Part shown: positions 6,488-29,860 of the stretch, piece after piece
How the letters are laid out: the number at the start of each line of letters is the position of its first letter
How positions within the stretch are numbered: position 1 is the stretch's first letter
From: Minisyncoccota bacterium
GTDB taxonomy: Bacteria > Patescibacteriota > Minisyncoccia > UBA6257 > GWB1-50-10
Length of the DNA stretch: 64,000 nucleotides
Assembly: GCA_041659005.1 (NCBI GenBank)
Contig: JBAZZD010000001.1
Span: forward strand, 16,366 to 80,365
Direction: 5' to 3'
Made by a program: the position numbers and the translations under genes
The notes under the pieces: model-generated
Told to the model about the DNA's origin: nothing
The model's database searches: none
Seen by the model: only the letters and a program-made list of their open reading frames with translations

Positions 6488-7189
6488 ATGTCAAAAAAAT
6501 ATTTAAAAGAACTATTTACACTTTTTCTTTCAATATCCGGTTATGTACCGAGTCACGCCACAATACTTAGAACGATTGCCATGACACTGGCCCTCGCTCT
6601 TTCTTTTTATTTTATTTACTTTCAAACACATAATTCGGGGCTTGCAATTGCTTATTTTGTACTTTCAGAATTCCTCTACATAGGTTTTGTATATTGCGTC
6701 CTATCAAAAAATGGCCTCCGACATTGGTTTATTAAAAAATGGGGCAATGAGGAAAGAGGATATTTAGCATTTGAGGCAATCCTTGGTTTTTTATTTTTTA
6801 ATAATGGGGCAAGTATTGCGTATATCTCATCTTCAACCACTGGAATTTTATTCGATTTCGTTCCGAAAAAACTCATACTTATATTGGTAATTGGAATGTT
6901 TGGTCTTGGTTTTATTGTTAAAATACTTGCAGCAAAAGCAATATCAATTGATATATATTACTGGAAAGATATGTTTTTAGGGAGAAAGATATGTGATTTT
7001 GTAATAACGGGACCATACAAATACTTCAAGAATCCAATGTATGGTGTCGGACAACTTCAATCATATGCAATTGCAATCTGGTATGGATCTATACTTGGCT
7101 TATTTGTCGCAGTAGTAAATCAATGTCTAGTGTTTTCCTTTTTCTTTTTAAAGGAAAGGGAATTTATAAAAAGAATTTATAAAAGCTAA
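6488..7189 (+). CDS. Integral-membrane methyltransferase, ICMT/PEMT family-like
   Basis: Multi-TM protein with C-terminal GPYKYFKNPMYGVGQLQSY motif typical of isoprenylcysteine/phospholipid methyltransferases. Confidence 0.45.
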   Translation: MSKKYLKELFTLFLSISGYVPSHATILRTIAMTLALALSFYFIYFQTHNSGLAIAYFVLSEFLYIGFVYCVLSKNGLRHWFIKKWGNEERGYLAFEAILGFLFFNNGASIAYISSSTTGILFDFVPKKLILILVIGMFGLGFIVKILAAKAISIDIYYWKDMFLGRKICDFVITGPYKYFKNPMYGVGQLQSYAIAIWYGSILGLFVAVVNQCLVFSFFFLKEREFIKRIYKS

Positions 7190-7686
7190 AAGGTTTATCT
7201 ATTTTTTGCGTAGAAATCGAATAATAAAATAAATAGCAGTTACCATAAAAAGTAGCAACCAAAACCAAGAAAAATAAATAAGATATTCATAAAAATATAA
7301 ACCAAACAGAATACCCAACGAAAGAAGGCAAATTTTTATAAGGCTAACTTCCCACCATTGAAATGTCCATGTTTTAAAAATTTTCATAATTCATTAAGGA
7401 TATTGCATATGACCTTCGTATAATGATAATCCGTGCTAGAAATATAATAACCTCTATATTTTGATTAGAATAAATTCAGTTTATTTTTCTAATTTTTGGA
7501 AAAATTTCAAGAAGTAGATGAAATAGAGGAAGTTAAAAAACAATAGATATTGCCATGGATTATATTGCCCTAAAAACCCTAGAAATCCCAAATACCAATG
7601 CTTGTCTCTCATATCTAAAATTATATCAAAAACAATCCCTTTAATTTTGCAATAAAAATAGCTCCGCATTGTAGAAGTTATAAAAA

Positions 7687-8244
7687 CTACTGAAGTGTTT
7701 TTATATTTGTCTTTAGCTCTCTTAATATTTTCGCAACAGCATCCTTGGCGTCTTTAGATTTTATTGTTAAGAGTCTTTTTCTGTTATCCAAATAGGTATC
7801 TGCCAACTTATCCGCCCAACCACCAGTTCCTCCGATAACAACAGTTGGGATATTTGACTGATATGCAATGGCTATTTCAGTAAGAGTTCCCGATCCGCCT
7901 GATATTGCAATTATAGCGTCACAAGAATTAACTAGAACAAACTCTCTACCGCCACCTCTTTCTAGGCCGGTAGAGATTACAACGTCAGTATCTCCATTTT
8001 TATCCCATATATCTTTGCCCTTGCCATAGGTGACGCCAACGGTAAATCCATTGACGCTTTTTGCTCCCCTTGAAGCTGCCGTGGAAAGCGAATCATAGTC
8101 CTTTTCTGCTCCATACACGGTTATGTTTCCGGAAAGCGCTATTTGTTTCCCAACGTCAAAAGCTATTTGTTCTATTTCTTTTGAATAATTTAAGTCCGCC
8201 GCCGAGCCCATTACCCCTATTTGATATTTTCTATTTTTTTTCAT
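7687..8244 (-). CDS. LOG/TIGR00725-family Rossmann-fold nucleotide-binding protein
   Basis: IGVMGSAAD N-terminus and GGSGTLTE (PGGxGTxxE-like) motif. Confidence 0.65.
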   Translation of the reverse strand: MKKNRKYQIGVMGSAADLNYSKEIEQIAFDVGKQIALSGNITVYGAEKDYDSLSTAASRGAKSVNGFTVGVTYGKGKDIWDKNGDTDVVISTGLERGGGREFVLVNSCDAIIAISGGSGTLTEIAIAYQSNIPTVVIGGTGGWADKLADTYLDNRKRLLTIKSKDAKDAVAKILRELKTNIKTLQ

Positions 8245-13050: not shown

Positions 13051-13257
13051 AAATTAAATGTATTGTTTTATTATTGATAATACCACCACTTGAACAAATA
13101 AAAAACACTGATTATATCAATGTTTTTTTAAATGGCTCCGAGCTGTGCAGGAACTTAGAACCGTTATTTTAAGCGGTTGGCACTCCTACGAAATGGACGC
13201 GGCCGTTAAAATGCTCCGGGGAGAGGAACCGTTCGACTTGATTGATTAAAAAGTCAG

Positions 13258-14417: not shown

Positions 14418-14702
14418 CTATTTCTTTTCTTTAGGCGGTCCCCACTGCCAGCGTGGTTTTTCTCCTTTCCAATATCCGAAAATGAATATAAGCGCAATCA
14501 TGAGCAGAAAGCCCAAGAGTGCCGCACCTGGTGCGTCATCGGTATCTCCAACATAAATACCGGCAATAACAATAGCTATTCCGATGATCACAATAAGCCA
14601 GCCTTGCCATTTCACCGGCACCCAGCCCCAGCCGTAGAGCTTGGCCTTGAACCAGTAACCCTGCGGATTGTCTTTTAAATATTTTATGTATTGTTTAAAC
14701 AT
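14418..14702 (-). CDS. Small 2-TM membrane protein, last gene of the defense-like operon
   Basis: 94 aa. Two hydrophobic helices. W-rich (WGWVPVKWQGW). 18-nt gap to the upstream gene. Confidence 0.4.
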   Translation of the reverse strand: MFKQYIKYLKDNPQGYWFKAKLYGWGWVPVKWQGWLIVIIGIAIVIAGIYVGDTDDAPGAALLGFLLMIALIFIFGYWKGEKPRWQWGPPKEKK

Positions 14703-14720
14703 ATATATTATCTGTTGTTT

Positions 14721-15284
14721 TTAATGCGATAGAAACTTTCCTAATAATCGCTCTTTAACCTGATAAAGCTCTTCTTTAGTAAACACATCCTGATAATCCC
14801 AAAGACGTCCATTTGAACTAAAAGCGTTCAAATAGTGCTCACAGTAAATTTTTGGATTAATAAAGATCGTGTCATCGCGTTTTTCCCAGCCTAGAGCGGA
14901 GGTGTAATCATAGCCAATATCGTAACCGCCGATACCAAGCCATTGATGAGCGAGTATATTACGCCAATTATGGATTGATTCGGCCACCTGAGAAAACCTC
15001 GTGTCAGATGTATCACCGTCAACAAATTTCTCCAAAAATAATTTATATCCCTCAGGACCGCTTTTGTTGAAAAAACCTTCGGAGATCGTAAGTGCGACCG
15101 CGTGAATACCAAGAAACATAAGTGATGTTTGATAGTGATCATCCTCGGTTGTTAAACGAATTTCGTTGTTAAAGAAATTAGCAATAGAATTCAAAAGTGT
15201 TTCTATAATTTCTACAGGAGAACCATTTTGAAAACGTTTGATTCTTTTCTCCAGTGGCTCCAAATTGTGTGCTCGATTTTCCAT
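14721..15284 (-). CDS. Hypothetical protein with HEPN-like Rx4H motif
   Basis: WRNILAHQW matches the R-x4-H-x-aromatic HEPN signature. Co-operonic with the STAND-like gene. Confidence 0.4.
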   Translation of the reverse strand: MENRAHNLEPLEKRIKRFQNGSPVEIIETLLNSIANFFNNEIRLTTEDDHYQTSLMFLGIHAVALTISEGFFNKSGPEGYKLFLEKFVDGDTSDTRFSQVAESIHNWRNILAHQWLGIGGYDIGYDYTSALGWEKRDDTIFINPKIYCEHYLNAFSSNGRLWDYQDVFTKEELYQVKERLLGKFLSH

Positions 15285-15296
15285 CGTTGTTAATAA

Positions 15297-16166
15297 TTAA
15301 GGGTTACAAAATCTTATATAAACTCTTCGTAATTTATTACATAATTCGGGAATATTTTTTTTATCGACGTCTTCTGATTTAGGTATTTTATAATCACGAT
15401 GCACCATTTTATTTACCTCGTTTTTAAATACCCTGACTAAACTACACAAATCCTCAACCAAATCTTTGAAATCATAAAAGGCAGATGAATTTGCCTTTAA
15501 ATTATCAATTAATTTATCAAGATTTAAAATTCTTCCGTTAGTTGTGTCATACCATAATTGGTGATTTTGCTGTATATATTTTCCATTTTCATCCCGTTCC
15601 CTGAAAACTATTTCAAAAACTCTATGAATTATGCATTCTATTAATTTTCTGGTTAGAATCATCACGGCTAAATAAAGTCCTTCTCTATAGCTCTCATTTA
15701 TTTCTTTTTTTATGTAATCTAAAAATGGATCATTAAAATCATACTGTAAAAAATCTAAACTATTTTGAACCCCACTTATTTCTTCTTCTAATAATTCTAT
15801 TTTGTTTTGCGAAATATCTAGTTTGAAATTGGATTTTTTTACTTCGTCTAATAATTCTGGATACCATTTTTTAATATAGGTTCCGTAATAATTCCAGTTA
15901 TCTCTTTGTGTATTTTTTATTTTTTCATCAAAAATTACTTTCTCTAAAATGGCTAAATATCTATATGAAGGAACTCTTTGCATAAACTGAGCAAAATTAT
16001 TTTGCTCAGTACTCATGAATGAATAGGCCTCAAAGTTACTATAAAAATTATCGGGTAAATTAATCCCGTTAGCTTTTAAAAAATCAACAAATCCACCATT
16101 TTCATAACAGTGTATGTATAGCTTTTCAGATAATTCCCATATTCTGTTATTAATTATTAAAGCCAT
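15297..16166 (-). CDS. Hypothetical protein (operon partner of the Mrr-NTPase gene)
   Basis: 289-aa ORF, 3-nt gap to the upstream gene. No family recognised. Confidence 0.45.
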   Translation of the reverse strand: MALIINNRIWELSEKLYIHCYENGGFVDFLKANGINLPDNFYSNFEAYSFMSTEQNNFAQFMQRVPSYRYLAILEKVIFDEKIKNTQRDNWNYYGTYIKKWYPELLDEVKKSNFKLDISQNKIELLEEEISGVQNSLDFLQYDFNDPFLDYIKKEINESYREGLYLAVMILTRKLIECIIHRVFEIVFRERDENGKYIQQNHQLWYDTTNGRILNLDKLIDNLKANSSAFYDFKDLVEDLCSLVRVFKNEVNKMVHRDYKIPKSEDVDKKNIPELCNKLRRVYIRFCNP

Positions 16167-16169
16167 ATT

Positions 16170-19100
16170 TTACGATTTTGGCGATATAAGTTCCTCACCT
16201 TCATCTAGGTGTCTTTTTATATCGTCAGCGATTGATCCAGTTAAAGAATCTACATAGTTTTTTATAACTCCTGGCTGGCACTTGGCGCTTATTTTTTCTA
16301 ATGCTTCTTTTTTATTTACTAATGCAGGTGGAGCTTGCCCTACTGTGGAACTATAACTACCACTTATCACCTGATGAGTAAAAACGTCTTTTGCTTCATC
16401 TAACACCCCTGCTTTTTCGGCCGCCATCAAAAAATTCAAAAACAAATCAATTGTATCTGCACCAAAAGAGATGCCAAAAAAAGCATTAGTAGCTATTTTC
16501 AAACTTTCTGCGTCTCCAGTCTTTATTTTGTCACCAATATAGTGCAATAAATAGTCGCCGTGTTCACTATCATGACCACCAATGCTTTTACCCAAAAATC
16601 CATCAATATCGAAAGAGAATAAAAGTTCCTCATTTCGCCAAAAATTAATTTTATCCATCAATTTTGCAAAATCATCATAGTTCTTAATTAGCTCCGTAGC
16701 CGAACGAAAACCGTCAAAGGGAATTGCATCAAATTTTTCAGCGCCTCTATTTTTAAAATATTCGCTCTGTTTTTTGAGACGATATTCAACCAATTCAATA
16801 AACTGATCCAAATCACCATTAAGTGCAAATTTTAATAGATCGTCTGTGTGATAATCTACCGAAGGGATATCTTTTATTATTTCAAATAATTTTTTACGAA
16901 TTTTATCTAAATCACCGCTTGGTAAATTCCAATTTACGGCATTGTGAACTAGAAAATCGAACATATCTAATACGTTGCTGTTGACTACACCACTTAAAGA
17001 CTGCTCAAGAATATTCACAACCTGGTTTTTTTCTGTTTGATCCCTGTCCTTAAAAATAAAATAAGAACGATGAAGAATAAGATTCTTAAGATAATCATCT
17101 GCTTTCTCAATAATCTGAGATATCCACGGCATAAATTCTGCCGTAGAAACATTATGTCGTATTATAAGGTCTAAAAGATTGTCTACAGCTTGGCGTTGAA
17201 GATTATTTAAATCTCCTAAGATTCGGCTAGCATATTTCATTATGTATTGTTTATCCCTATCGGAGGCAACTCTATAAATTCCGAGATGGAATCTATTAGG
17301 AACACTACTCAACAAATTTTCATCATCTACGATCTCAATAAATGATTGGTTATTGAATTTAGACCAAGTCTCAACTAAAGGAATAGTCTGCCATTGAGTA
17401 ATTCCCTTCACTTCATTCTCAAGTTCATATAAGTATTTAATAATCTCGGCTCTGCTTTTATATTTATTAGATAGCCTTTTTACTACCTCATCCAACTCTT
17501 CCTGTGGAAAATCATGAAGTCGAAAGTGATTATGAACAAGCCAAGACCATCTATCGCTCTCGGGGGCTCCAGACTCTATTTTTTTAAAATCGGAAATAAT
17601 CAAATCATGAGCCACAAAATATCGAAAAATAATGTATTCCATTGATCTCGGAAAATTTCTAAGTATGCCAGCAATTTTATCGCTCAAATCTAAATAAATA
17701 TTATTATTAGCCCAATATCTAACAAGAACGTCTTCGATAGAACTAAGCACCTCATGAGAACTTGTTTCGCTAATTAATTTCTCTAACCATTCAATAGCTT
17801 TTGTTTTATCGGATAGAATCCTCTTCCAAAAATCATCGCTTGTGGAGGTTGCCTCGTGACCGATGTCATCAACAATTTCCACGCCTATTTTTTTAATCTT
17901 GTCATTGGAGTGAAGAACCAACTTTTTCAGGACATCCATTCCTACATCTCTAAACTCATCCACTGGTTTTTTGTATATACCTTCATAACGCAGAATTCTT
18001 CTACCAAAAGTTATTTGGTTACCGTAACTTTCCCTATGTTCATGCGATCCAGAAAGGGATTCCAAGACACCATCGCTAGCAAGCCTTGCTTCGAGTTCGG
18101 TACAATTTCCTTTGCTAACCCAATCCAATAATTCCTTTAGTGATTGAGTAGCTGAAGCTATATTTACTTCAATGGGTGATATCGCTTGTTTTATAAGACT
18201 AGCGGGCTTGTAATTATCGTAAGTACCCTTAAGGTCTTTCTGGGCAAGATAAAGAATCAATTTTAATATTGCTTTTTCAAATCCAGGTACATGCAAAACA
18301 TGGTAAATGACTGGCCCATAAGTATCCCGATTTAGTCCATATGAATTCTGTGTATTCGATGAATTTACATAGGCATAAACCAAACTGATTGCCTCTTCAG
18401 GGGCTAAAAAAGCAATAGAAGCAGCGAGTTCTAATATTTTAGATTTAGATGAATCGGATGTCTCAGATGTTTCATTAATCCATTTTTGGAAAAGCTCCTT
18501 CACGGCTTCGTTCGCCGAATTCGTATCCTTATGTCTAGATGCAGCTGCCAAATTTGCTGTGAGTTGTTTAGGGTAGATAGATAACCAATTCTCAAACATT
18601 TCGTTCGCTAAATCTTTTCCATTTTCTTTATCTAATTCTACAGAAAGATAGATATCTCCTTTCATGTCAGGATTAAATCTTATCGAGGCGCCAACAACAC
18701 GAAGAATTTTTGCCTCAATAAGTTTATTCAGAGCTTCGTTTATTAAATCTACTTTTAATTCCAAAACAGTTGCCAACTTATCAAGCACATTATTTCCACG
18801 TTTTTCTTTTGAAAATGGGACAATAATAGATAGCTCTCTTAAAAAAGCCTTTGAGTTGCGTTCATCTAATACACCCTTAAGTGCGTTTACGGTTTCTTGG
18901 TCTAAATTATCTTTAATCTGCTTTTTAACTTGACTCGGGTTTAAGTCGCCACCCTTAATAAGTTTTCCTGTCGTGATTATTAAAAACAAATTTCCATTTA
19001 GTTCTTTTACGATTCTTTCTGGATGATTAATCTTTTTTGAATCAGCTGCTAGATTTAAAATTTCTATAAGTTCCTTCTCGGAAAGATGAGGTAACTCAAG

Positions 19101-20027
19101 TAAATTATAATTATCTACCCGCTGCGAATCCGCTAAATTCTTAACAATTTCTTTCCCAGAACTGCGACAAGACAAGACAACCTTTAACTTTCCAGGAGAA
19201 AATGTCTTAGTGTGAGCAATTAATTTTCTTGTATCGTCTAAATATCTTTCAGCGTCATCTAGAAATATCAAGGAATTCTTTTCGTGATCTAACTCATTGA
19301 TAGCTTCGTTAATATCTCTAATCCCAGGTCGACAAAACCATGTTTGAATACCTGGCCATAAAGAATCGCCATTTTTTCCAGATTCTACAATAAAATGTGT
19401 TTTTCCATAGCCACCTCCAGAATGAACAATAAGAAGATTAGATGTATTTTTTTGTATAAATTCCTTTAAAATATTTACTGATTCTTCTCGGCCGACAAAA
19501 ACTCCTTTAAGAAGCGGCTCTGATTCGGCGAATACATGAGCTGGAACGAATGTTGGTTCTTGGGGATCGCCAAAGTAGTTATGCCTTAATAGCGGATATT
19601 GAGTTGTTTTACTTTCTAAGTTGGCTCGCGGCCAAATAAATAACTGATCGACGAATTTTTTATTTTCGTTTAGCTTCTCAAGTTTACCTATATGATCGTC
19701 GGTGCCTATTCTCAAATCAGCATTTGTCGCAACCAGTAAAAAATTCACTTTATTCTTCTTTGCCTTTTCTAACTCCTTTTTAATCTCTCTCTGTAATTGT
19801 TTATAGGCTGCCTCAAGATTATGTTTGGTCCATTTCGCTTGGAAATTCCAAACACCCTTAAGACCCATATATGGTCCGTCATAACGCCCATCCCAACCGC
19901 CATCTGCTCCAATTTCCGGATTGCTTGAGAGAAAAGCGGGGTGGTTAATTTCTAATGCAAAAAGATCGTTTACTAAACGTTGGAAGTCTCTATCATTATT
20001 GATTTTATTCCAATCTAGGTTTTTCAT
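16170..20027 (-). CDS. Large defense-like protein: N-terminal Mrr-like restriction endonuclease domain + P-loop (STAND-like) NTPase + long helical-repeat C-terminus (Avs-like architecture)
   Basis: N-terminus GADGGWDGRYDG..FQAKW (Mrr_cat-like PD-(D/E)xK). Walker A LIVHSGGGYGKTHF. Walker B LIFLDDAERY. About 950 aa of helical repeats. Start overlaps the res stop (ATGA). Confidence 0.6.
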   Translation of the reverse strand: MKNLDWNKINNDRDFQRLVNDLFALEINHPAFLSSNPEIGADGGWDGRYDGPYMGLKGVWNFQAKWTKHNLEAAYKQLQREIKKELEKAKKNKVNFLLVATNADLRIGTDDHIGKLEKLNENKKFVDQLFIWPRANLESKTTQYPLLRHNYFGDPQEPTFVPAHVFAESEPLLKGVFVGREESVNILKEFIQKNTSNLLIVHSGGGYGKTHFIVESGKNGDSLWPGIQTWFCRPGIRDINEAINELDHEKNSLIFLDDAERYLDDTRKLIAHTKTFSPGKLKVVLSCRSSGKEIVKNLADSQRVDNYNLLELPHLSEKELIEILNLAADSKKINHPERIVKELNGNLFLIITTGKLIKGGDLNPSQVKKQIKDNLDQETVNALKGVLDERNSKAFLRELSIIVPFSKEKRGNNVLDKLATVLELKVDLINEALNKLIEAKILRVVGASIRFNPDMKGDIYLSVELDKENGKDLANEMFENWLSIYPKQLTANLAAASRHKDTNSANEAVKELFQKWINETSETSDSSKSKILELAASIAFLAPEEAISLVYAYVNSSNTQNSYGLNRDTYGPVIYHVLHVPGFEKAILKLILYLAQKDLKGTYDNYKPASLIKQAISPIEVNIASATQSLKELLDWVSKGNCTELEARLASDGVLESLSGSHEHRESYGNQITFGRRILRYEGIYKKPVDEFRDVGMDVLKKLVLHSNDKIKKIGVEIVDDIGHEATSTSDDFWKRILSDKTKAIEWLEKLISETSSHEVLSSIEDVLVRYWANNNIYLDLSDKIAGILRNFPRSMEYIIFRYFVAHDLIISDFKKIESGAPESDRWSWLVHNHFRLHDFPQEELDEVVKRLSNKYKSRAEIIKYLYELENEVKGITQWQTIPLVETWSKFNNQSFIEIVDDENLLSSVPNRFHLGIYRVASDRDKQYIMKYASRILGDLNNLQRQAVDNLLDLIIRHNVSTAEFMPWISQIIEKADDYLKNLILHRSYFIFKDRDQTEKNQVVNILEQSLSGVVNSNVLDMFDFLVHNAVNWNLPSGDLDKIRKKLFEIIKDIPSVDYHTDDLLKFALNGDLDQFIELVEYRLKKQSEYFKNRGAEKFDAIPFDGFRSATELIKNYDDFAKLMDKINFWRNEELLFSFDIDGFLGKSIGGHDSEHGDYLLHYIGDKIKTGDAESLKIATNAFFGISFGADTIDLFLNFLMAAEKAGVLDEAKDVFTHQVISGSYSSTVGQAPPALVNKKEALEKISAKCQPGVIKNYVDSLTGSIADDIKRHLDEGEELISPKS

Positions 20028-22387
20028 AATTCAAGTGCCATCCATTCTTTCCAATCATCCTGTTCGCATTTCTCCCAATCATAAATAGCCTTGTCGCTGA
20101 TGTGCCAGGCACGATTGCGTTCAATGACAATACCGCCGAAAAGCTTCTTGTTTTTCTGATCGGCAATGTATTTCTGCAAAGCTTCGGCTTTAGCTTTGGT
20201 GTAGGTTATACCGTCCCGATCACCGGAGTCTTTGACTTCAAACAAACCGATTCGACCGTCGGCAAACTTCACTAAATAGTCCGGGTAGAACGTATAGATG
20301 CCTCCGGCATATTCGTACTTTATGCCAAAGTAATCCTGCTTATTCTCTCCATTTTTCCACCACCAATCAATCTTAGAGGCGTTGTCGTTCAAGAATGACT
20401 CAAACTCACGTTCTGGCTTTGAGCGATCCACATTGAGATAACACGGATCATAAGCATACTTTTTCGCTTTTACGATTTCATCGGTGTACTCGTTATAAAA
20501 CTGCTCAGGCTGAAGCTCAAAAGGATATCGCTGTTCGCTTTCCTCGATACGCTCTCGGACTTCCTGCTCTTTAACAGCCTTATAGTTATCAATCGCCGTA
20601 GCCAGTACGTGCTCAAAGTAGCCACGATTTTTATCGTGCAAGAAAACCTTCTGCGCCATGAGCATATTTTCCTCACCCCAGCTCTTTGAGCCGAGCACCC
20701 CCTGAAACCAGAGATAGATGGCCGCTTTAACCGACGGGACCGAACGCTTCACGTTCTTGAAAGGTCCGAGATTGTTTTTAATGGTCTGCTCAAAAAAGAC
20801 CATGAGCTCGTCGGCCGCCACCTGAAGCTTGGCAAAACCTTCGGCACCGAGCTTACCCTCAAGCTCATCAAAACTTTTTATATCCAAATGCGTATCGGCG
20901 ATAATTTCTTGCTGATACTTCTTGATATTGAGATCAACGCCCTTGCTCTCAACTTTCTTGGCGTTCTCCGCTGGTTTATTTTTGCGTGATACGCCAAAGT
21001 ATTTATTGGCTGTTTCTTCAAAGACATCGTGGAAGCTGGATGTGACATCGCCATAATCCGCTCGAGCTTTGTAGTACGACTCTATCTTGAGCGATTTGTA
21101 ATCCTTTGTGCGTCCAGCTCGCAAATGCTTGATGATGTTCGGATTGTATTCTTCCTTTTTAACTTCGATTGATTTGAGATTGGTATAGATATAACCACGA
21201 TTGAGCATTTCGTGTCCGTAGTGTCGCTGTTCCGGCATACGCAAAATACGGCCAACAGTTTGGATTTCAAAGACGATATTATGTGTCTCTCGAAACTTCA
21301 CAAGAATGTGTGCTCGAGGACAATCCCAGCCGGTATCAATGGCTTGCTTGAAAATAAGAAATTCAATCTCGTTATCCGGCTCGGCGATCCAATCAATAAG
21401 CTCTGACTTCTGTTCGGCCAGCCAGATAGCCAGCTTGCCGTTGCCGTGCCCATCTTTACGTTCAACGATACTCTTACCAGCCAGAAATTTCTTCACTGCT
21501 TCGATCTTTTGGTCACCAGCTTCTGCGGTAGGAATCTGTACCAGAACCAAAGGATTGATATGTGATCCTTCTTTTTCAAATACCTTTTTAAGTTCTAGAC
21601 GCTTACGATAGGCGGCCTCGAGTACAGCTGATTGTGAGTCATCTTCGGAAGCGGCGATTTTCTCTATATCCTCGTTGATGATGATTTCTTTCTTAATCAT
21701 ACCTTCGTCAATCACATCTTTCGGCTCGACTATGACATAGCCAGCACCGCCTCGAGCCAGTTCCTGGGTAAAACCGAGCTCCTGCTGTGGCCGACGGGGA
21801 GTAGCGGACATTTCGATCACAATATCTGCACCGATAAGGTCGCGGAGCTCATTTGCCCGGGCTGTGTCAGCACTTACGTGGCTCTCATCAATAATAAGAA
21901 TGATTTTACGTTGCTCTCTGGTCTTCTCGAGCACATCCCGAAAATTTAACTTCTCGCCGTCTTTCATGACCAAGTTTTTCCAATCTCCGGATTCACGTTC
22001 CTTGCTTCGAAGTTTTTCCCAGTTGGCGACCACGACTTCGTTTTGCACGATCCGTTCACGCCCACCGCTAAAGGCATTCTCGACAGATGTAACTCGAGGG
22101 AAACCAGCGAATACCTTTTCGAGCGAATGTTTGCTCTGTAAATGAAGCTCACCCTTACCGATACTCATCCAAACAAAGCAAAAATCTTCTTTGGGGAGTT
22201 CTTTGATAATACCCTCGATGTACTTAGCCATCATGATGGTCTTACCCGAACCAGTGGGAGATTGAAAGACGCACACTTCGCCCGGGCCGTCATAACCCAA
22301 AAGCTTGACCGTTGTTTCGATCAGCTGATTAACGGCTTTTTCTTGATAAGGTTTAAGATCAATATTCATAAATTTGTTTATATACAT
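20024..22387 (-). CDS. res: Type III restriction enzyme Res subunit (SF2 helicase + endonuclease)
   Basis: Walker A FQSPTGSGKT and IIDESH (DEAH-like) box. Overlaps mod by 29 nt. Confidence 0.75.
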   Translation of the reverse strand: MYINKFMNIDLKPYQEKAVNQLIETTVKLLGYDGPGEVCVFQSPTGSGKTIMMAKYIEGIIKELPKEDFCFVWMSIGKGELHLQSKHSLEKVFAGFPRVTSVENAFSGGRERIVQNEVVVANWEKLRSKERESGDWKNLVMKDGEKLNFRDVLEKTREQRKIILIIDESHVSADTARANELRDLIGADIVIEMSATPRRPQQELGFTQELARGGAGYVIVEPKDVIDEGMIKKEIIINEDIEKIAASEDDSQSAVLEAAYRKRLELKKVFEKEGSHINPLVLVQIPTAEAGDQKIEAVKKFLAGKSIVERKDGHGNGKLAIWLAEQKSELIDWIAEPDNEIEFLIFKQAIDTGWDCPRAHILVKFRETHNIVFEIQTVGRILRMPEQRHYGHEMLNRGYIYTNLKSIEVKKEEYNPNIIKHLRAGRTKDYKSLKIESYYKARADYGDVTSSFHDVFEETANKYFGVSRKNKPAENAKKVESKGVDLNIKKYQQEIIADTHLDIKSFDELEGKLGAEGFAKLQVAADELMVFFEQTIKNNLGPFKNVKRSVPSVKAAIYLWFQGVLGSKSWGEENMLMAQKVFLHDKNRGYFEHVLATAIDNYKAVKEQEVRERIEESEQRYPFELQPEQFYNEYTDEIVKAKKYAYDPCYLNVDRSKPEREFESFLNDNASKIDWWWKNGENKQDYFGIKYEYAGGIYTFYPDYLVKFADGRIGLFEVKDSGDRDGITYTKAKAEALQKYIADQKNKKLFGGIVIERNRAWHISDKAIYDWEKCEQDDWKEWMALEL

Positions 22388-24089
22388 CTAATATCTTTTG
22401 AGGAATGGGTTCGAGCGTAACACCATGCCAGTTAGCGAACTCTGTTTTTGAAAGACCTGTGGCATCGAGCGTGAAGCAGTAAAGTATTTTCTCACCATCA
22501 ATTTCCTTTAGCTCTTTTTTCAAGGCGGGCAATGATTTACGGTCCAAAGAATAGTAAACAGCCAGCGTTTTATTGCCTTGTTGGAATATACGATAGTGAT
22601 CGGTCTTTTTTACTTCATCAAACACGCCTTCTCGCAAACAAAGCATCTCGGTGCATTCCTGTGTAATCCGTATCTTAAAGTCATCGCCGTTGGCGTTCTT
22701 TTTTACGAATTTTGTCTTGAAATATTTAAGAGAGCCACCCGTACCCGGCACTTTTACATTTTCAGAATTTTTATATCCTCCAGATACATTTTTCAGTCGA
22801 GGATAGCAAACTTCCGTACAAATATTGCCCTCGTCATTAGTACAAAGTATAAATTCTCTTTTTCCACCGTCCTGATTAAGTTCAAGAACTGCGTGACCCG
22901 TAGTACCTGAACCGGCAAAAAAATCGAGAACAATCCCGTCTTTTTTGATGGAGAGATTGATACATTTTTTAATTAGCTCAACTGATTTAGGGAAGTCAAA
23001 AAGATGCTGATGAAACATACTTTTCAAAACCTCTTTCCCGTTTTCGTTGTTTATGTTTTTATCTAACCATAAAGCTTTTTCTTTGGTTGTAGCTGTTTCT
23101 CCATTCTGCTTTATAAGACGATCTTTTCTATAGACTCGCCAAGCACCTGTTGAAACCTTTTTACCGACAAGATCAGTTATTTCCTTGGCGACTTTTTCTT
23201 TACCCCATGTCCAGCAACCGTCTTCGTTTTTAGAGTTGCGTGGGTAGACCTCAACATAGCCTTTCTTGTTAGTTAAAGAAACTACACCATTTTTTAAATC
23301 AACAAAAAGTGGGTAATAAAGATTTGGTCGGTTCTTTCGATTAAAGACAGGGTTACGATTTCTTAATTCCAAGAGACGATATTTCCCTTTCTCGTCCTCT
23401 TTATCATATTCGGCCAGCATTTCCTCACCTTTAGTAGGTTCTATAATTTGTGCAATGTTAAAATCCTTGGCGAAAACTAAAATATATTCAAAAGTTTTTG
23501 CGAAATGTTTATCAAGCGTTCTGCCTCGCGGATTTAGTTGGACAACAAGTTGAGCAATAAAGTTTTTCTCTCCAAAAATATCATCACATAATAGTTTAAG
23601 GTGCGAGACTTCATTGTCGTCTATGCTAATGAAAATAACCCCGGAGTCCTTAAGTAGGTTTTTTGCGAGCTGAATTCTCTTTGCCATAAAAGAGAGCCAT
23701 TTACTGTGCCGATATGCATCTTCTCTGTCGACGTAATTGTCATTATATTTAAAGTCCTTGTTGCCCGTGTTATACGGCGGATCAATATAGATCACATCAA
23801 CCTTACCTTGATGCGTAAAATTCAAAACTGAGAGAGCATGATAATTATCTCCCTCGATCAAAATATTAACCGGCCTGGACGGGTCCTTGTCAGTAATTTC
23901 CTTAGAACCGATTTCTTTTAGTACCGGTAAAGCATTCTCTGCATCTTTCTCAAATTGTTCTTTGACTTTTTCCTCATCCCAAATAAGCCCGTACTTCTTT
24001 CGGGACTCCAACTTCTCAACAATTTTGACTAACTCTTCTTTGCTGAGTTGGGAGTAGTCTTTTCCATTTTTGGCGATTTCCTTTTGCAT
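22359..24089 (-). CDS. mod: Type III R-M DNA methyltransferase Mod subunit (N6A/N4C beta-class)
   Basis: Motif IV IYIDPPYNTGN and motif I VLDFFAGSGTTGHAV. Confidence 0.8.
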   Translation of the reverse strand: MQKEIAKNGKDYSQLSKEELVKIVEKLESRKKYGLIWDEEKVKEQFEKDAENALPVLKEIGSKEITDKDPSRPVNILIEGDNYHALSVLNFTHQGKVDVIYIDPPYNTGNKDFKYNDNYVDREDAYRHSKWLSFMAKRIQLAKNLLKDSGVIFISIDDNEVSHLKLLCDDIFGEKNFIAQLVVQLNPRGRTLDKHFAKTFEYILVFAKDFNIAQIIEPTKGEEMLAEYDKEDEKGKYRLLELRNRNPVFNRKNRPNLYYPLFVDLKNGVVSLTNKKGYVEVYPRNSKNEDGCWTWGKEKVAKEITDLVGKKVSTGAWRVYRKDRLIKQNGETATTKEKALWLDKNINNENGKEVLKSMFHQHLFDFPKSVELIKKCINLSIKKDGIVLDFFAGSGTTGHAVLELNQDGGKREFILCTNDEGNICTEVCYPRLKNVSGGYKNSENVKVPGTGGSLKYFKTKFVKKNANGDDFKIRITQECTEMLCLREGVFDEVKKTDHYRIFQQGNKTLAVYYSLDRKSLPALKKELKEIDGEKILYCFTLDATGLSKTEFANWHGVTLEPIPQKILDVYKQIYEY

Positions 24090-24095
24090 AAAATT

Positions 24096-24287
24096 TTATT
24101 TCTTCTTACGTTTAACATTGCTCGTGTCCTCAAGAAAAGCATTTAGGTCCGACTGCTTGATCCGCCAGACTCCGAGCTTGGATGCTTTAAGCCGGCCGGC
24201 TTCGATGTACCGTGTGACCGTGCGTGTATGCACTCGTAAAATTTTAGCGACTTCCTCAATCGTAAAAAGTTTTTCGATTTCGTTCAT
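24096..24287 (-). CDS. Excisionase-family/MerR-like HTH DNA-binding protein
   Basis: 63 aa. LFTIEEVAKILRVHTRTVTRYIEAGRLKASKLG matches the Xis-family HTH. Immediately upstream of mod. Confidence 0.7.
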   Translation of the reverse strand: MNEIEKLFTIEEVAKILRVHTRTVTRYIEAGRLKASKLGVWRIKQSDLNAFLEDTSNVKRKKK

Positions 24288-24400
24288 AAAAATATATTAG
24301 TCGTTGATACCATTTTACCGCTTCTGCTTTTCGTTGTCAAAAACGCCGTCTTTTGTCATAATGAGCTTAACAACAAAAAGAGCACACTGTTTTAACAATA

Positions 24401-24470
24401 AGGATATCACTATATCACTCTGTTGATATAGTAAGTGGCTTTACTATCTCAGTTGATTGATATAGTAAAT
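24401..24470. repeat. Iteron/operator-like cluster of short direct and inverted repeats
   Basis: GATATCACTATATCAC. Two copies of TTGATATAGTAA and its inverse TTACTATCTCA within 70 bp. Confidence 0.4.
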
Positions 24471-24895: not shown

Positions 24896-25096
24896 ATGTT
24901 GCCCCAAGAAGCAATCCAAGAATTTAAAACACTGTACGAAAAACGCTACGGCGTAAAGCTCTCCGATGAGGAGGCTGCTTTGCGCGCGAATAATCTTTTC
25001 AAACTTTACAAGATCACCTACATGGGTGAGCCAAACATCGACGACTTCAAAGAAAAAGTAGTGAAAAGCCATGACCTCAACACCAACCACAATTAG
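24896..25096 (+). CDS. Hypothetical small protein
   Basis: 66-aa ORF in the GC-rich segment. No family recognised. Confidence 0.3.
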   Translation: MLPQEAIQEFKTLYEKRYGVKLSDEEAALRANNLFKLYKITYMGEPNIDDFKEKVVKSHDLNTNHN

Positions 25097-25379
25097 CGAA
25101 ATACAGTTCTACCCGGTTAAACCCCAGGACGGCCTCCTTGGGTTTGTTTCGTTTGTCCTGGACAGCAAATTCTGGATGGGATCGGTGGCTGTTTTCTCCA
25201 GGCGCGAGGGCGGATACCGGCTTGTGTATCCAACACGCAAAGTTGCCGGACAAAACATTAATATTTTTCATCCAATTAACCACGAAGTCGGCATCCTGGT
25301 CGAAAAAGCCGTCAGTGAAAAAGTAGCTGAAATATTTAGTGAATCATATGAACAAACCGAACCGGACAACACGTGGTAA
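25071..25379 (+). CDS. SpoVG-family protein
   Basis: ISEIQFYPV..DGLLGFVSFVLD..F.....V....EGGYRLVYPTRK....INIFHPIN..VG..VEKAV aligns with the conserved SpoVG core (..HPIN..). Confidence 0.6.
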   Translation: MTSTPTTISEIQFYPVKPQDGLLGFVSFVLDSKFWMGSVAVFSRREGGYRLVYPTRKVAGQNINIFHPINHEVGILVEKAVSEKVAEIFSESYEQTEPDNTW

Positions 25380-26928: not shown

Positions 26929-28512
26929 ATGAACCAGGAAGTACAACCAAAACTCAAGTACTTCCTCTACGCTCGAAAATCTTCAGAACAAGAAGACAGA
27001 CAGGTCCTTTCGATTGACTCGCAAAAGAGCGAATTGGAAGCACTCGCAAAACGGGAAAAGCTTCAGATTGTGGAGCGTCTCGAAGAATCCTATTCAGCCA
27101 AAGCACCAGGCCGGGAGATCTTTAACGCGATGATAAAACGAATAGAGAAAGGTGAAGCGGAGGGCATTGTTGCGTGGCATCCGAACCGGCTCTCACGTAA
27201 TTCCGTGGACACCGGCTACCTGGTCTACCTTATGGACCAGAATAAACTCCTCGAAATCCGAACACCCGGACAGGCATTTAAGAATTCGCCAAATGATAAA
27301 TTTTTACTAAACCTCCTGTGCAGCCAAGCCAAACTCGAAAACGACAACAAGGGCGTGGACGTAAAACGTGGACTCAGGCGCAAAGTAGAGATGGGCTGGC
27401 ATCCGGGCGTTGCTCCAATCGGCTATATGAATACGCCGGACAAAATGAAAGGTTTTAAGACGATCCGCAAAGACCCGAAGATGTTTCCGATAATCCGGAA
27501 AATGTTCGATATGATTTTGAGCGGTACATACACCGCGCCACGTGTCCATGAAATTGCCGTCAATCAATGGGGCTTAAAGAAACTCGCCCGAAGCGGTTTC
27601 TACCGCGTGCTTTACAATTCCTTTTACTACAGTTGGTTTGAGTGGCCGGCCGGATCGGGCAACTGGCACAAGGGCAAGCACGAACCGATGATCACGCGCG
27701 ATGAATATGACCGCGTTCAGGCACTCCTTGGCCGTGGCAGCAAGCCAAAACCAGAAGCACATTCATTCGCATATACCGGAATGATCCGATGTGGTGAATG
27801 CGGATGCATGGTAACGGCCGAGAATAAAATAAAGAAAAATAAGAACGGCAATGTCCACCACTACACTTATTACCACTGCACGAAACGCAAAGGTCCATGC
27901 GCTCAGAAATGCATAGAAGTGAAAGAAATGGAAAAGCAGATTACCGGCACGCTTGCTAAAGTCCGGCCACCGGAAGAATTCCACGGCTGGGCAATGAAGT
28001 GGCTGCAGAACGAGAACGGTCGCGAAGCGGCCGACCGCAATGCGATCCTCTCTAATCAGCAGAAAAATTACGAAGCATGTGTGCGGAAACTGGACGCGCT
28101 TATAGATATGCGTGCAGCTGGGGAAATTAGTGAAGAAGAATTTGCACGAAAAAAATCAACGATCAATCAGGAGAAAGCAAAACTGCATGAGCTTTTGAAT
28201 GATACTGACGCGCGGGTGGACAGCTGGCTGCAGACGGCCGATAACGTGATCAAGTTCGCAACAGACGCCAAAGAAGCATTTACGGAACGGGGCCAGCACG
28301 CGAGAAAAGTCATTTTATCCGCCTTAGGTTCGAACCTCCTCCTAAAGGACAAAAACATAAGCATTGACACGGATTCTGCGCTTCTGCCGATGATTCTCGT
28401 CTCAAATTCGTCCGCAAAAAATTCTGGCACGTTCGAACCTCCGAATGAAGGCTCTAATAAAGAGAAAAGCCACGCTTTTGACGTGGCAAATCCCATGTGG
28501 CTCCCCGGGTAG
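26929..28512 (+). CDS. Large serine recombinase (phage-integrase type)
   Basis: Resolvase N-terminal domain YARKSSEQEDRQVLSIDSQ with catalytic Ser. Recombinase domain. C-terminal zinc ribbon CGECGCMV..YYHCTKRKGPCAQKC. Last ~14 nt overlap tRNA-Asn. Confidence 0.85.
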   Translation: MNQEVQPKLKYFLYARKSSEQEDRQVLSIDSQKSELEALAKREKLQIVERLEESYSAKAPGREIFNAMIKRIEKGEAEGIVAWHPNRLSRNSVDTGYLVYLMDQNKLLEIRTPGQAFKNSPNDKFLLNLLCSQAKLENDNKGVDVKRGLRRKVEMGWHPGVAPIGYMNTPDKMKGFKTIRKDPKMFPIIRKMFDMILSGTYTAPRVHEIAVNQWGLKKLARSGFYRVLYNSFYYSWFEWPAGSGNWHKGKHEPMITRDEYDRVQALLGRGSKPKPEAHSFAYTGMIRCGECGCMVTAENKIKKNKNGNVHHYTYYHCTKRKGPCAQKCIEVKEMEKQITGTLAKVRPPEEFHGWAMKWLQNENGREAADRNAILSNQQKNYEACVRKLDALIDMRAAGEISEEEFARKKSTINQEKAKLHELLNDTDARVDSWLQTADNVIKFATDAKEAFTERGQHARKVILSALGSNLLLKDKNISIDTDSALLPMILVSNSSAKNSGTFEPPNEGSNKEKSHAFDVANPMWLPG

Positions 28513-28572
28513 GACTCGAACCTACAACCATCGCGTTAACAGCGCGCCGCTCAACCATTGAGCTACCGGGGA
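28498..28572 (-). tRNA. tRNA-Asn (GTT)
   Basis: Hand-folded cloverleaf. Acceptor TCCCCGG/CCGGGGA. D-arm GCTC-AATGGTT-GAGC. Anticodon loop CTGTTAA. T-arm GTAGG-TTCGAGT-CCTAC. Encoded CCA. Confidence 0.8.
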
Positions 28573-29023: not shown

Positions 29024-29209
29024 ATAGTCGCCTCAAATTTGTTAGTATGTTTAAGAACCTGTTTAGTATGCACCAAAACAAGAAAAAAATGCAACATTGA
29101 AAAAAAACGCGATCTTTTGTATAGTAAACTTCATACTTAAGAAAACTGATAATCATGAAGCCCCTATAGCTCAGTTGGTAGATCCGCCGTGGCGGACTCT
29201 TAAGCAAAT

Positions 29210-29464
29210 ATGTTCTTCGTCTATTTAATAAAAAGTAAAACATCAGGAAAAATATATATTGGACAAACGATAAATCTTGAAAAAAGATTAATGCGGCACA
29301 ATGGAATACTTCCAACAAAAAATTCATCATTCACTAATAAACAAGGGGAAAATTGGGAGGTACTATATACAGAACAATTTAAAACAAGAACAGAAGCAAA
29401 AAAGAGAGAAAGAGAATTAAAATCAGGAAAAGGTAGAGAATTTCTTAAAAATCTAATACAGTAG
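29210..29464 (+). CDS. Small GIY-YIG (URI/YhbQ-like) nuclease, copy 1
   Basis: 84 aa. FFVYLIKSKTSGKIYIGQTINLEKRLMRHN is the GIY-YIG core. Confidence 0.6.
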   Translation: MFFVYLIKSKTSGKIYIGQTINLEKRLMRHNGILPTKNSSFTNKQGENWEVLYTEQFKTRTEAKKRERELKSGKGREFLKNLIQ

Positions 29465-29520
29465 TAATAAGCCCCTATAGCTCAGTTGGTAGATCCGCCG
29501 TGGCGGACTCTTAAGCAAAT

Positions 29521-29775
29521 ATGTTCTTCGTCTATTTAATAAAAAGTAAAACATCAGGAAAAATATATATTGGACAAACGATAAATCTTGAAAAAAGATT
29601 AATGCGGCACAATGGAATACTTCCAACAAAAAATTCATCATTCACTAATAAACAAGGGGAAAATTGGGAGGTACTATATACAGAACAATTTAAAACAAGA
29701 ACAGAAGCAAAAAAGAGAGAAAGAGAATTAAAATCAGGAAAAGGTAGAGAATTTCTTAAAAATCTAATACAGTAG
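29521..29775 (+). CDS. Small GIY-YIG (URI/YhbQ-like) nuclease, copy 2 (identical)
   Basis: Identical translation to 29210..29464. Confidence 0.6.
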   Translation: MFFVYLIKSKTSGKIYIGQTINLEKRLMRHNGILPTKNSSFTNKQGENWEVLYTEQFKTRTEAKKRERELKSGKGREFLKNLIQ

Positions 29776-29781
29776 TAATAA

Positions 29782-29854
29782 GCCCCTATAGCTCAGTTGG
29801 TAGAGCAGTTGCCTCTTAAGCAAACGGTCCTAGGTTCAAATCCTAGTGGGGGCA
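29782..29854 (+). tRNA. tRNA-Lys (CTT)
   Basis: Cloverleaf. GCCCCTA acceptor. D-arm GCTC-AGTTGGTA-GAGC. Anticodon loop CTCTTAA. T-arm CTAGG-TTCAAAT-CCTAG. 3' acceptor TGGGGGC+A. CCA not encoded. Confidence 0.8.
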
Positions 29855-29860
29855 CAAATT

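Follow-up and report, generated by a model that had tools for sequence, protein, structure and literature searches.

A predicted HEPN-fold gene is the conserved anchor of a hypervariable defence slot in Patescibacteria and lies beside a STAND NTPase gene with a HEPN-fold partner

The DNA studied here (hereafter the window) is a stretch of 64,000 nucleotides (nt) from a Minisyncoccota bacterium, within which positions are numbered unless a locus is named. In its interval 14418–16166, three small minus-strand genes, coding for proteins of 289, 187 and 94 residues, follow a gene for a STAND-type NTPase (Table 1). We consider it reasonably probable that this interval is made of three separate things: a pair formed by the STAND NTPase and the 289-residue protein, a 187-residue predicted HEPN-fold protein (HEPN187) that anchors a slot for defence genes, and a 94-residue protein of the genomic backbone. 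This reading was drawn from gene order, family conservation, modelled folds, motif invariance, turnover of the cargo genes and homology breakpoints, all directly observed in the window and in related loci (designated L001, L003 and so on).

All three open reading frames (ORFs) predicted in the interval proved genuine. None is a chance ORF, because each falls in a conserved protein family, of 90 clusters from diverse taxa for the 289-residue protein, 332 clusters for HEPN187 and at least 1058 clusters for the 94-residue protein. No significant family was found for any of them in Pfam, PADLOC, NCBIfam or PHROGs. The original prediction had regarded all three as accessories or effectors of the STAND NTPase, which our data support for the 289-residue protein only, and not for HEPN187 or the 94-residue protein.

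The 289-residue protein is the partner of the STAND NTPase

A gene of the 289-residue family directly follows a gene for an nSTAND5-like protein of ~1284 residues in all four close-clade loci (the window, L001, L036 and L038), and the HEPN187 gene is absent from two of these STAND–289 loci (L036 and L038). The co-occurrence with the STAND gene that had been anticipated for the small genes is seen in all four loci for the 289-residue family and in two of them for HEPN187. We conclude that the 289-residue protein is the dedicated partner of the upstream ~1285-residue STAND NTPase, the two genes making up one system. The NTPase itself matches PF25199 (nSTAND_NTPase5) with an E-value of 2.2e-5, under the curated cut-off, and gave no Avs match in PADLOC.

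The 289-residue protein had been described as having no recognisable family; its C-terminal domain clearly has a HEPN fold. In an AlphaFold model (36 homologues; predicted local distance difference test score (pLDDT) of 89), an N-terminal domain (residues 1–125) is followed by a helical C-terminal domain (residues 147–287). The best Pfam match of the latter is DUF5677 (PF18928; E = 0.012, 16.1 bits). Since this is below the gathering cut-off of the Pfam model (27.1 bits), and since only three of 36 family members match at E ≤ 0.05, we do not assign the protein to DUF5677. Note that true DUF5677 proteins resemble it in their location, their genes immediately preceding HEPN187 in four loci (L008, L044 and L048 among them). 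HHalign revealed no relationship of the 289-residue family to Ymh or to the HEPN187 family, and a sequence search of the PDB with the profiles of the 289-residue and HEPN187 families returned no match.

Residues R173, K174, E177, R182, N252, H256, D258 and Y259 are invariant in the 289-residue family. The canonical R-x4-6-H motif is not found in the C-terminal domain: the position five residues before the histidine is occupied by V, T or A, and a K or R is located eight residues before it. As the arginine at −5 is missing, the domain may lack catalytic activity, or it may draw on an arginine of another helix; the residues that it may employ are R173, K174 or R182.

In the mechanism that we envisage, the STAND NTPase would sense infection and then engage the 289-residue HEPN-like protein, which would be an effector or an adaptor switched on by the NTPase. 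The pair resembles Avs and nSTAND systems in its weak nSTAND_NTPase5 match and in the HEPN-fold protein encoded directly downstream; it differs from them in that the HEPN-like partner is a separate gene in the window, not a fused effector domain.

More distant members of the 289-residue family (~43% identity) either lie inside a type I restriction-modification (RM) operon (L123) or stand alone (L037 and L124). The L123 member, a 295-residue protein (positions 7001–7888 of that locus, 43% identity), is encoded between hsdM and hsdS along with an unannotated 306-residue gene, a layout similar to that of the RM-embedded anticodon nuclease PrrC. The likeness to RM-embedded nucleases of the PrrC/RloC type extends to the window, where the two HEPN-fold genes follow a type III RM cassette in one operon. 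Unlike PrrC, however, they have no ABC-ATPase domain and no detectable sequence relationship to it, and a guard function would be an analogy. Associations between HEPN proteins and RM were reportedly described by Anantharaman et al. in 2013.

HEPN187 is the anchor of a hypervariable slot

The 187-residue gene had been taken as an accessory of the STAND gene. This is at odds with its occurrence in other loci, where the same family follows cyclic-oligonucleotide-based (CBASS), Hachiman, Shedu, RM, TIR and ABC-3C systems, and with the occurrence of the STAND–289 pair without it. The genes upstream of HEPN187 encode a CBASS CD-NTase and Cap15 in L003, Hachiman HamA/HamB in L005, a SMODS protein, a transmembrane (TM) protein and a DUF5677 protein in L008, a helicase-nuclease in L009, SMODS-AGS_C and SLATT in L013, a type II methyltransferase (MTase) and restriction endonuclease in L018/L021, Shedu in L019, a DncV-like cyclase in L020, a Ymh HEPN protein in L029, ThsB-TIR and 8xMP in L034, and an ABC-3C-like SMEK/DUF2326 set in L035. 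We surveyed 142 proteins encoded upstream of HEPN187 in 71 non-redundant loci. They matched 76 Pfam families, none of which was a dominant partner; the commonest were SMODS and resolvase/recombinase (five each), ResIII and DUF5677 (four each), and the PADLOC matches were chiefly to cyclases and to type I and type IIG RM.

The content of the slot changes between close relatives. Where two loci have HEPN187 proteins that are at least 80% identical, their upstream genes were homologous in only 8 of 20 pairs, against 1 of 69 pairs at 70–80% and 3 of 2189 pairs below that, and they differ in locus pairs with 96%, 93% and 89% identical HEPN187. In nine out of ten such pairs, DNA homology ends 0–20 nt before the HEPN187 ATG, and often it ends again at the stop codon. 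Three loci have a common Zn-ribbon gene with a different slot behind it, which is empty in L050 (a 2-nt gap) and contains a gene for a 217-residue protein in L010 and one for a 128-residue TM protein in L009. HEPN187 is thus conserved and anchors the 3' edge of a hypervariable slot. An anchor that is kept, cargo that differs between close relatives and the presence of defence families, i.e. the features that define a defence hotspot, were all found, as assessed without a formal genome-wide enrichment control.

Hotspots with conserved flanking genes are known from P2/P4 elements (PMC9122126) and from the Pseudomonas core genome (PMC10250203). As in these loci and those of PMC12632615, a conserved anchor gene adjoins a slot whose defence content varies between close relatives, and serine recombinase and tRNA genes are associated with it. 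The HEPN187 slot differs from the known hotspots in that the anchor is itself of a defence type (HEPN), not a phage core or housekeeping gene, in that homology breaks 0–20 nt from the start codon of the anchor, and in that its hosts are mostly Patescibacteria.

Several genes of the slot have no Pfam or PADLOC match (L010, 9358–10008, 217 residues; L011, 8379–9986, 536 residues; L024, 2471–3256, 262 residues; L021, 7832–8557), and several of these unmatched genes carry R-x4-H-like motifs, for instance RNPYLH in L021 and RSNFSH in L024. Those lying directly upstream of HEPN187 are candidate new defence genes.

It is conceivable, if rather doubtful, that HEPN187 is a shared accessory of whichever system lies upstream, either a second-line RNase comparable to PrrC, which guards its RM system, or a post-transcriptional regulator of the operon in a role comparable to that of the BrxR/CapW regulators, which are found beside many systems. 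Such a role would suit the position of HEPN187 almost always at the 3' end of defence genes, the strand that it shares with the gene before it in 22 of 27 loci, and the breakpoints at its ATG, which mean that it is kept while its partners are swapped. It would also suit the spacing, gaps of at most 20 nt being found in 16 of the 22 same-strand cases (73%), compared to 49% for neighbouring genes of one strand throughout the related loci (p = 0.046). This enrichment is marginal, however, and we discarded tight spacing of HEPN187 as evidence of coupling; close packing is usual in these compact genomes, which makes spacing alone weak evidence. Moreover, the upstream systems offer no single common partner or domain for HEPN187 to recognise, and HEPN187 is also encountered directly after a recombinase without a defence system (L031) and after non-defence genes (L015).

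Recombinases and repeats around HEPN187

Homologues of the large serine recombinase of the window are present in the flanks of 30 HEPN187 loci (tblastn, 26–56% identity, mostly 37–46%), and HEPN187 has a recombinase gene no more than 150 nt away, before or after it, in 7 of 21 loci. These recombinases fit the published link between serine recombinases and defence islands, which the former mark; DUF5677 is among the domains reported to be enriched next to serine recombinases, outside the five genes reported as protective (PMC12632615). We considered the recombinase and HEPN187 as the co-inherited core of a single mobile element, and rejected this because no correlation was seen between the pairwise divergences of the two (Spearman −0.15, permutation p = 0.89). 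In this lack of co-divergence between recombinase and anchor, the HEPN187 loci differ from recombinase-linked islands. A tRNA gene is found ~100 nt downstream of HEPN187 in six loci.

Six loci also carry a tandem 9-bp repeat, (GTCACTTTT)x2, 5–53 nt after the HEPN187 stop codon (Table 1). Of the seven exact copies present in 970 kb, six sit at this place. In L010, both units are changed together, to GTCCCATTT, and in L008, L009 and L034 the repeat is followed by ~100 nt of conserved non-coding sequence with no Rfam match. Neither the window nor the majority of the loci contain the repeat (GTCAC), which may be a site of protein binding or of recombination.

An unlikely extension of the anchor reading is that HEPN187 marks a Patescibacteria-specific platform for cassette exchange. 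Defence genes would be swapped just 5' of its start codon, perhaps by the nearby serine recombinases acting at (GTCACTTTT)x2-like sites, and HEPN187 would be the universal downstream output or guard RNase of any system that occupies the slot. If true, this platform would be a defence-island analogue of the integron, with an effector gene as the conserved element.

Another possibility, to which we give little credence, is that HEPN187 serves the island itself, as an addiction gene acting by post-segregational killing, or as a gene that carries or adjoins the recombination site of the cassettes. The proximity of recombinase and tRNA genes, the breaks of homology at both ends of the HEPN187 gene and the repeat after its stop codon, including the variant in which both copies changed, are in line with such a role. 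Against it stand the absence of the GTCAC repeat from the window and most loci, the independent divergence of recombinase and HEPN187, the lack of an evident antitoxin, and a search of the window for a repeat of the tRNA-Asn end, which found none.

Further elements recur around HEPN187. LOOT RNAs (RF03000; 67–81 bits, for a gathering score of 46) occur in three loci (L008, 2129–2255; L009, 1092–1215; L034, 5364–5486), where they adjoin serine recombinase and terminase-like or ParB-MTase genes; none was detected in the window. A fusion of ParB_N with an N6_N4 methyltransferase (~440 residues), accompanied by an adjacent helix-turn-helix (HTH) protein of 153–166 residues, is present in eight HEPN187 neighbourhoods (L003, L005, L008, L009, L011, L022, L024 and L034), three of which also have a 478-residue protein with a weak Terminase_6C match. 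These ParB-MTase and terminase-like genes are hints of phage-derived elements in Patescibacteria. A phage origin was rejected for HEPN187: no relatives were found on IMG/VR viral contigs and the terminase-like match is weak, though terminase-like and ParB-MTase neighbours exist in some loci.

HEPN187 is a probable member of the HEPN superfamily

The 332 clusters of the HEPN187 family (58–84% identity, word-indexed search) are nearly all labelled Patescibacteria, and the exact 187-residue protein is on record from a metagenome-assembled genome of Candidatus Paceibacterota, which places the window in a Patescibacteria genome. The family is compact, since an exhaustive profile search of 1.84 billion representatives yielded no more than 129 clusters at 50% identity. 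It is present in 29 of ~185,000 species-representative genomes, a sporadic distribution as expected for an accessory gene.

The stretch WRNILAHQW, on which the original prediction of a HEPN RNase was based, is confirmed at residues 107–115 and fits R-x4-H. In 40 homologues (58–83% overall identity), H105, W107, R108, N109, A112, H113 and W115 are invariant, as are N39, N40 and E41; the R-x4-6-H motif with a polar residue after the arginine is thus present (R108-N109-I-L-A112-H113). The structural model (pLDDT 88, predicted template modelling score 0.85) shows a helical core, followed by a small β-hairpin and helical subdomain. We regard membership of HEPN187 in the HEPN superfamily as probable, not proven. 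The prediction of a HEPN RNase is thus borne out as far as the motif is concerned, since it is canonical and invariant, and not as regards a sequence-level tie to annotated HEPN families. Indeed, HEPN187 matched none of the annotated HEPN families of the abortive-infection type (AbiV, AbiU2, AbiJ, Abi_C, ApeA and Ymh among others) in Pfam, PADLOC, NCBIfam or PHROGs. The HepT-like model (PF01934) was matched by only 1 of 40 family members (E = 0.037), and neither neighbour of HEPN187 in the window is a nucleotidyltransferase of the kind that characterizes HepT–MNT pairs.

It would surprise us if the 187-residue protein were not a HEPN nuclease but a helical bundle of other function, in which R-x4-H is kept for structure or ligand binding. 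This would account for the outcome of Foldseek against the PDB, which gave nothing significant and no HEPN match, for the HHalign alignment with Pfam-confirmed Ymh, which covers the motif segment only (19 columns, 2.9% probability), and for the failure of the family to match any Pfam HEPN model consistently.

As a HEPN protein, HEPN187 would dimerise as other HEPN proteins do, forming an RNase site, and the RNase would cut cellular or phage RNA, leading to growth arrest and abortive infection. The C-terminal α/β subdomain (residues 120–187) is a candidate sensor or autoinhibitory brake, and HEPN187 would work separately from the STAND system. We infer such RNase activity and toxicity, and likewise any defence role of the proteins described here, from motif, fold and context. 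HEPN187, here a predicted RNase only, can be likened to the stand-alone HEPN abortive-infection RNases AbiV, ApeA and HepS and to the HepT toxins. It differs from them in having no sequence-level membership in their families, no adjacent MNT antitoxin, and an additional C-terminal β-hairpin and helical subdomain.

The 94-residue gene and the comparison with L001

The 94-residue protein has two hydrophobic segments and eight tryptophans, and the original prediction proposed it as a membrane-disrupting effector. This proposal does not survive the comparison of contexts. The family is large and conserved, its clusters (70–87% identity) covering many Patescibacteria lineages, and the neighbours of its homologues in L039, L040, L121 and L122 (ArsR-like HTH, TspO, OmdA-like and ABC genes) include no defence gene. 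Furthermore, the gene is absent after HEPN187 in L001, whose cassette is 92% identical, and a tblastn search of the ~100 HEPN187 loci gave no match to it. The 94-residue gene is most likely an ordinary Patescibacteria backbone gene just outside the edge of the island, and it may be transcribed by read-through.

The window and L001/L007 share 92% DNA identity over positions 14749–20029 of the window, a block that corresponds exactly to the STAND, 289-residue and HEPN187 genes, with flanks that are otherwise unrelated. In L001, a homologue of the HTH gene of the window (56% identical at the protein level) lies directly upstream of the STAND gene, so that in the window the space between the HTH and STAND genes is filled by the type III RM cassette, of higher GC content (0.41–0.46, versus 0.33–0.36 for the STAND block). 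More broadly, GC content is 0.41–0.49 in the 20–29 kb region and 0.29–0.39 in the 14–20 kb region. This suggests that the type III RM cassette is a separate insertion, placed precisely ahead of the STAND ATG and after the HTH gene. The comparison as a whole shows cassette-wise assembly. A 74-nt segment at 13133–13249 (34-residue plus-strand ORF, MQELRTVILSGWHSYEMDAAV...) is 78% identical to L001 DNA located 28 nt past the stop codon of HEPN187. The segment of the window is ~1.5 kb more distant, beyond the 94-residue gene and an α/β-hydrolase gene, and could be a gene remnant or island-edge sequence.

It is very unlikely that all three small genes are accessories or effectors of the STAND NTPase, with the HEPN RNase and the two-TM peptide as alternative killing devices triggered by it: the short gaps (3 nt from the STAND stop to the 289-residue start, then 12 and 18 nt), the lack of any terminator-like site between the genes (consensus matching) and the block shared with L001 would agree with this, but tight spacing is the norm in these genomes, the STAND–289 pair exists without HEPN187 in L036 and L038, HEPN187 follows more than ten other types of system, and for the 94-residue gene, missing from the L001 cassette and belonging to a ubiquitous non-defence family, the idea is largely refuted.

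Some observations do weigh against the reading that we prefer, i.e. three separate things with HEPN187 as a defence-slot anchor. The STAND, 289-residue and HEPN187 genes have moved or persisted together in the window and L001, for which the shared block is the strongest argument, which fits a functional link between them. The defence classification of the upstream genes is an aggregate and not a per-locus one, the gene calls in the loci are crude (ATG-only ORFs), and a minority of loci have non-defence neighbours, such as the multicopper oxidase and GreA-like genes of L015. The uncorrelated divergences imply that the recombinase and HEPN187 are not the fixed core of one element. Finally, no neutralising partner (antitoxin) is evident for HEPN187 as a supposed toxin.

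Organization of the island

The features of the window, together with the repeat sites of the related loci, are listed in Table 1.

Table 1. Features of the window and (GTCACTTTT)x2 sites of HEPN187 loci
Feature	Position	Strand	Basis
94-residue W-rich two-TM protein	14418..14702	minus	ORF; family and context comparison
HEPN187, 187-residue predicted HEPN-fold putative RNase	14721..15284	minus	Compact unannotated family
R-x4-H HEPN-type motif codons (W107-R108-N109-I-L-A112-H113-Q114-W115)	14940..14966	minus	Invariance in 40 homologues
289-residue two-domain protein, conserved partner of the STAND NTPase	15297..16166	minus	90-cluster family; follows STAND in L001, L036 and L038
C-terminal domain of the 289-residue protein (residues 147–287), HEPN fold, non-canonical N252-x3-H256-x-D258-Y259	15306..15728	minus	
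1285-residue STAND-type NTPase	16170..20027	minus	Weak nSTAND_NTPase5 match
Type III RM cassette (Res 20024–22387, Mod 22359–24089)	20024..24089	minus	ResIII, REase_III / MTase_III matches
63-residue HTH_17 protein (excisionase/MerR-like), first gene of the operon	24096..24287	minus	PF12728, E = 1e-16
Best sigma-70-like promoter match, TTGACA-17-TAAAAT	24312..24340	minus	11/12 consensus matches
Large serine recombinase	26929..28512	plus	Resolvase and Zn_ribbon_recom matches
tRNA-Asn	28498..28572	minus	Probable island boundary; overlapped by the 3' end of the recombinase gene
(GTCACTTTT)x2 site, L008	10614-10628		
(GTCACTTTT)x2 site, L009	10603-10617		
(GTCACTTTT)x2 site, L034	10587-10601		
(GTCACTTTT)x2 site, L048	1127-1141		
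(GTCACTTTT)x2 site, L098	5442-5456		
(GTCACTTTT)x2 site, L120	10587-10601		
(GTCACTTTT)x2 variant, L010	near 10600		

The probable island runs from the tRNA-Asn and recombinase genes (~28.5 kb) through the HTH, type III RM, STAND and 289-residue genes to HEPN187 (14.7 kb). Its left boundary is an inferred one, because synteny was not conserved around the closest homologues of the 94-residue protein, through which a relative with an empty site was sought. On the other side, the recombinase ORF extends 15 nt into the 3' end of tRNA-Asn, the classic layout of a tRNA-integrated element. In the window, L024 and L092, the tRNA-Asn gene is found on the recombinase side, and L001 has it at the equivalent place. 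No direct repeat of its end was found elsewhere in the 12–30 kb region of the window, which is uninformative, since this is expected for serine recombinases.

Within the operon, the STAND ATG overlaps the Res stop codon. A promoter-like match was found by consensus matching just upstream of the HTH_17 gene; as promoter-like sites across the region do not exceed the total expected from shuffled sequence, it is a positional hint only. Upstream of the HTH_17 gene and of this site, two 26-nt near-repeats, each internally palindromic (ACTATATCA...TGATATAGT) and 34 nt apart, are found at 24409–24468 as candidate operator sites. A gene for a 102-residue SpoVG-like protein (25071–25379; E = 2e-6, just under the Pfam cut-off) separates the defence operon from the recombinase, together with the two unannotated genes that follow it (146 and 287 residues). 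Beyond tRNA-Asn, a perfect tandem duplication of 311 nt (29158–29855; 2.1 copies, 100% identical) has copies that each start with the initial 25 nt of tRNA-Lys, and an intact tRNA-Lys (29782–29855) closes the array. It may be the scar of repeated integration or excision at tRNA-Lys.

Discussion

That HEPN proteins occur in defence islands, and that hotspots are flanked by conserved genes, was already known (PMC9122126, PMC10250203). What is new is a pair of unannotated families with HEPN folds, probable in the case of HEPN187, one of them paired with a STAND NTPase, and a defence-type gene that is conserved and anchors a slot of rapidly changing content, in a phylum that has been little explored. 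Our search of a paper library found no description of a HEPN187-type anchor or of these two families. For annotation, the consequence is that only one of the three small genes belongs to the STAND system.

Patescibacteria (the candidate phyla radiation) are tiny, uncultured bacteria that account for much of bacterial diversity. They do not grow on their own, and their immune systems have hardly been surveyed. Many of the genes upstream of HEPN187 match nothing known, such as those coding for the 217-residue protein of L010, the 536-residue protein of L011 and the 262-residue protein of L024. The persistence of a putative RNase while its neighbours are replaced raises the question of why it is kept. 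HEPN187, being small and easily recognised, is a bait for new defence systems in Patescibacteria, and could serve as a marker for them.

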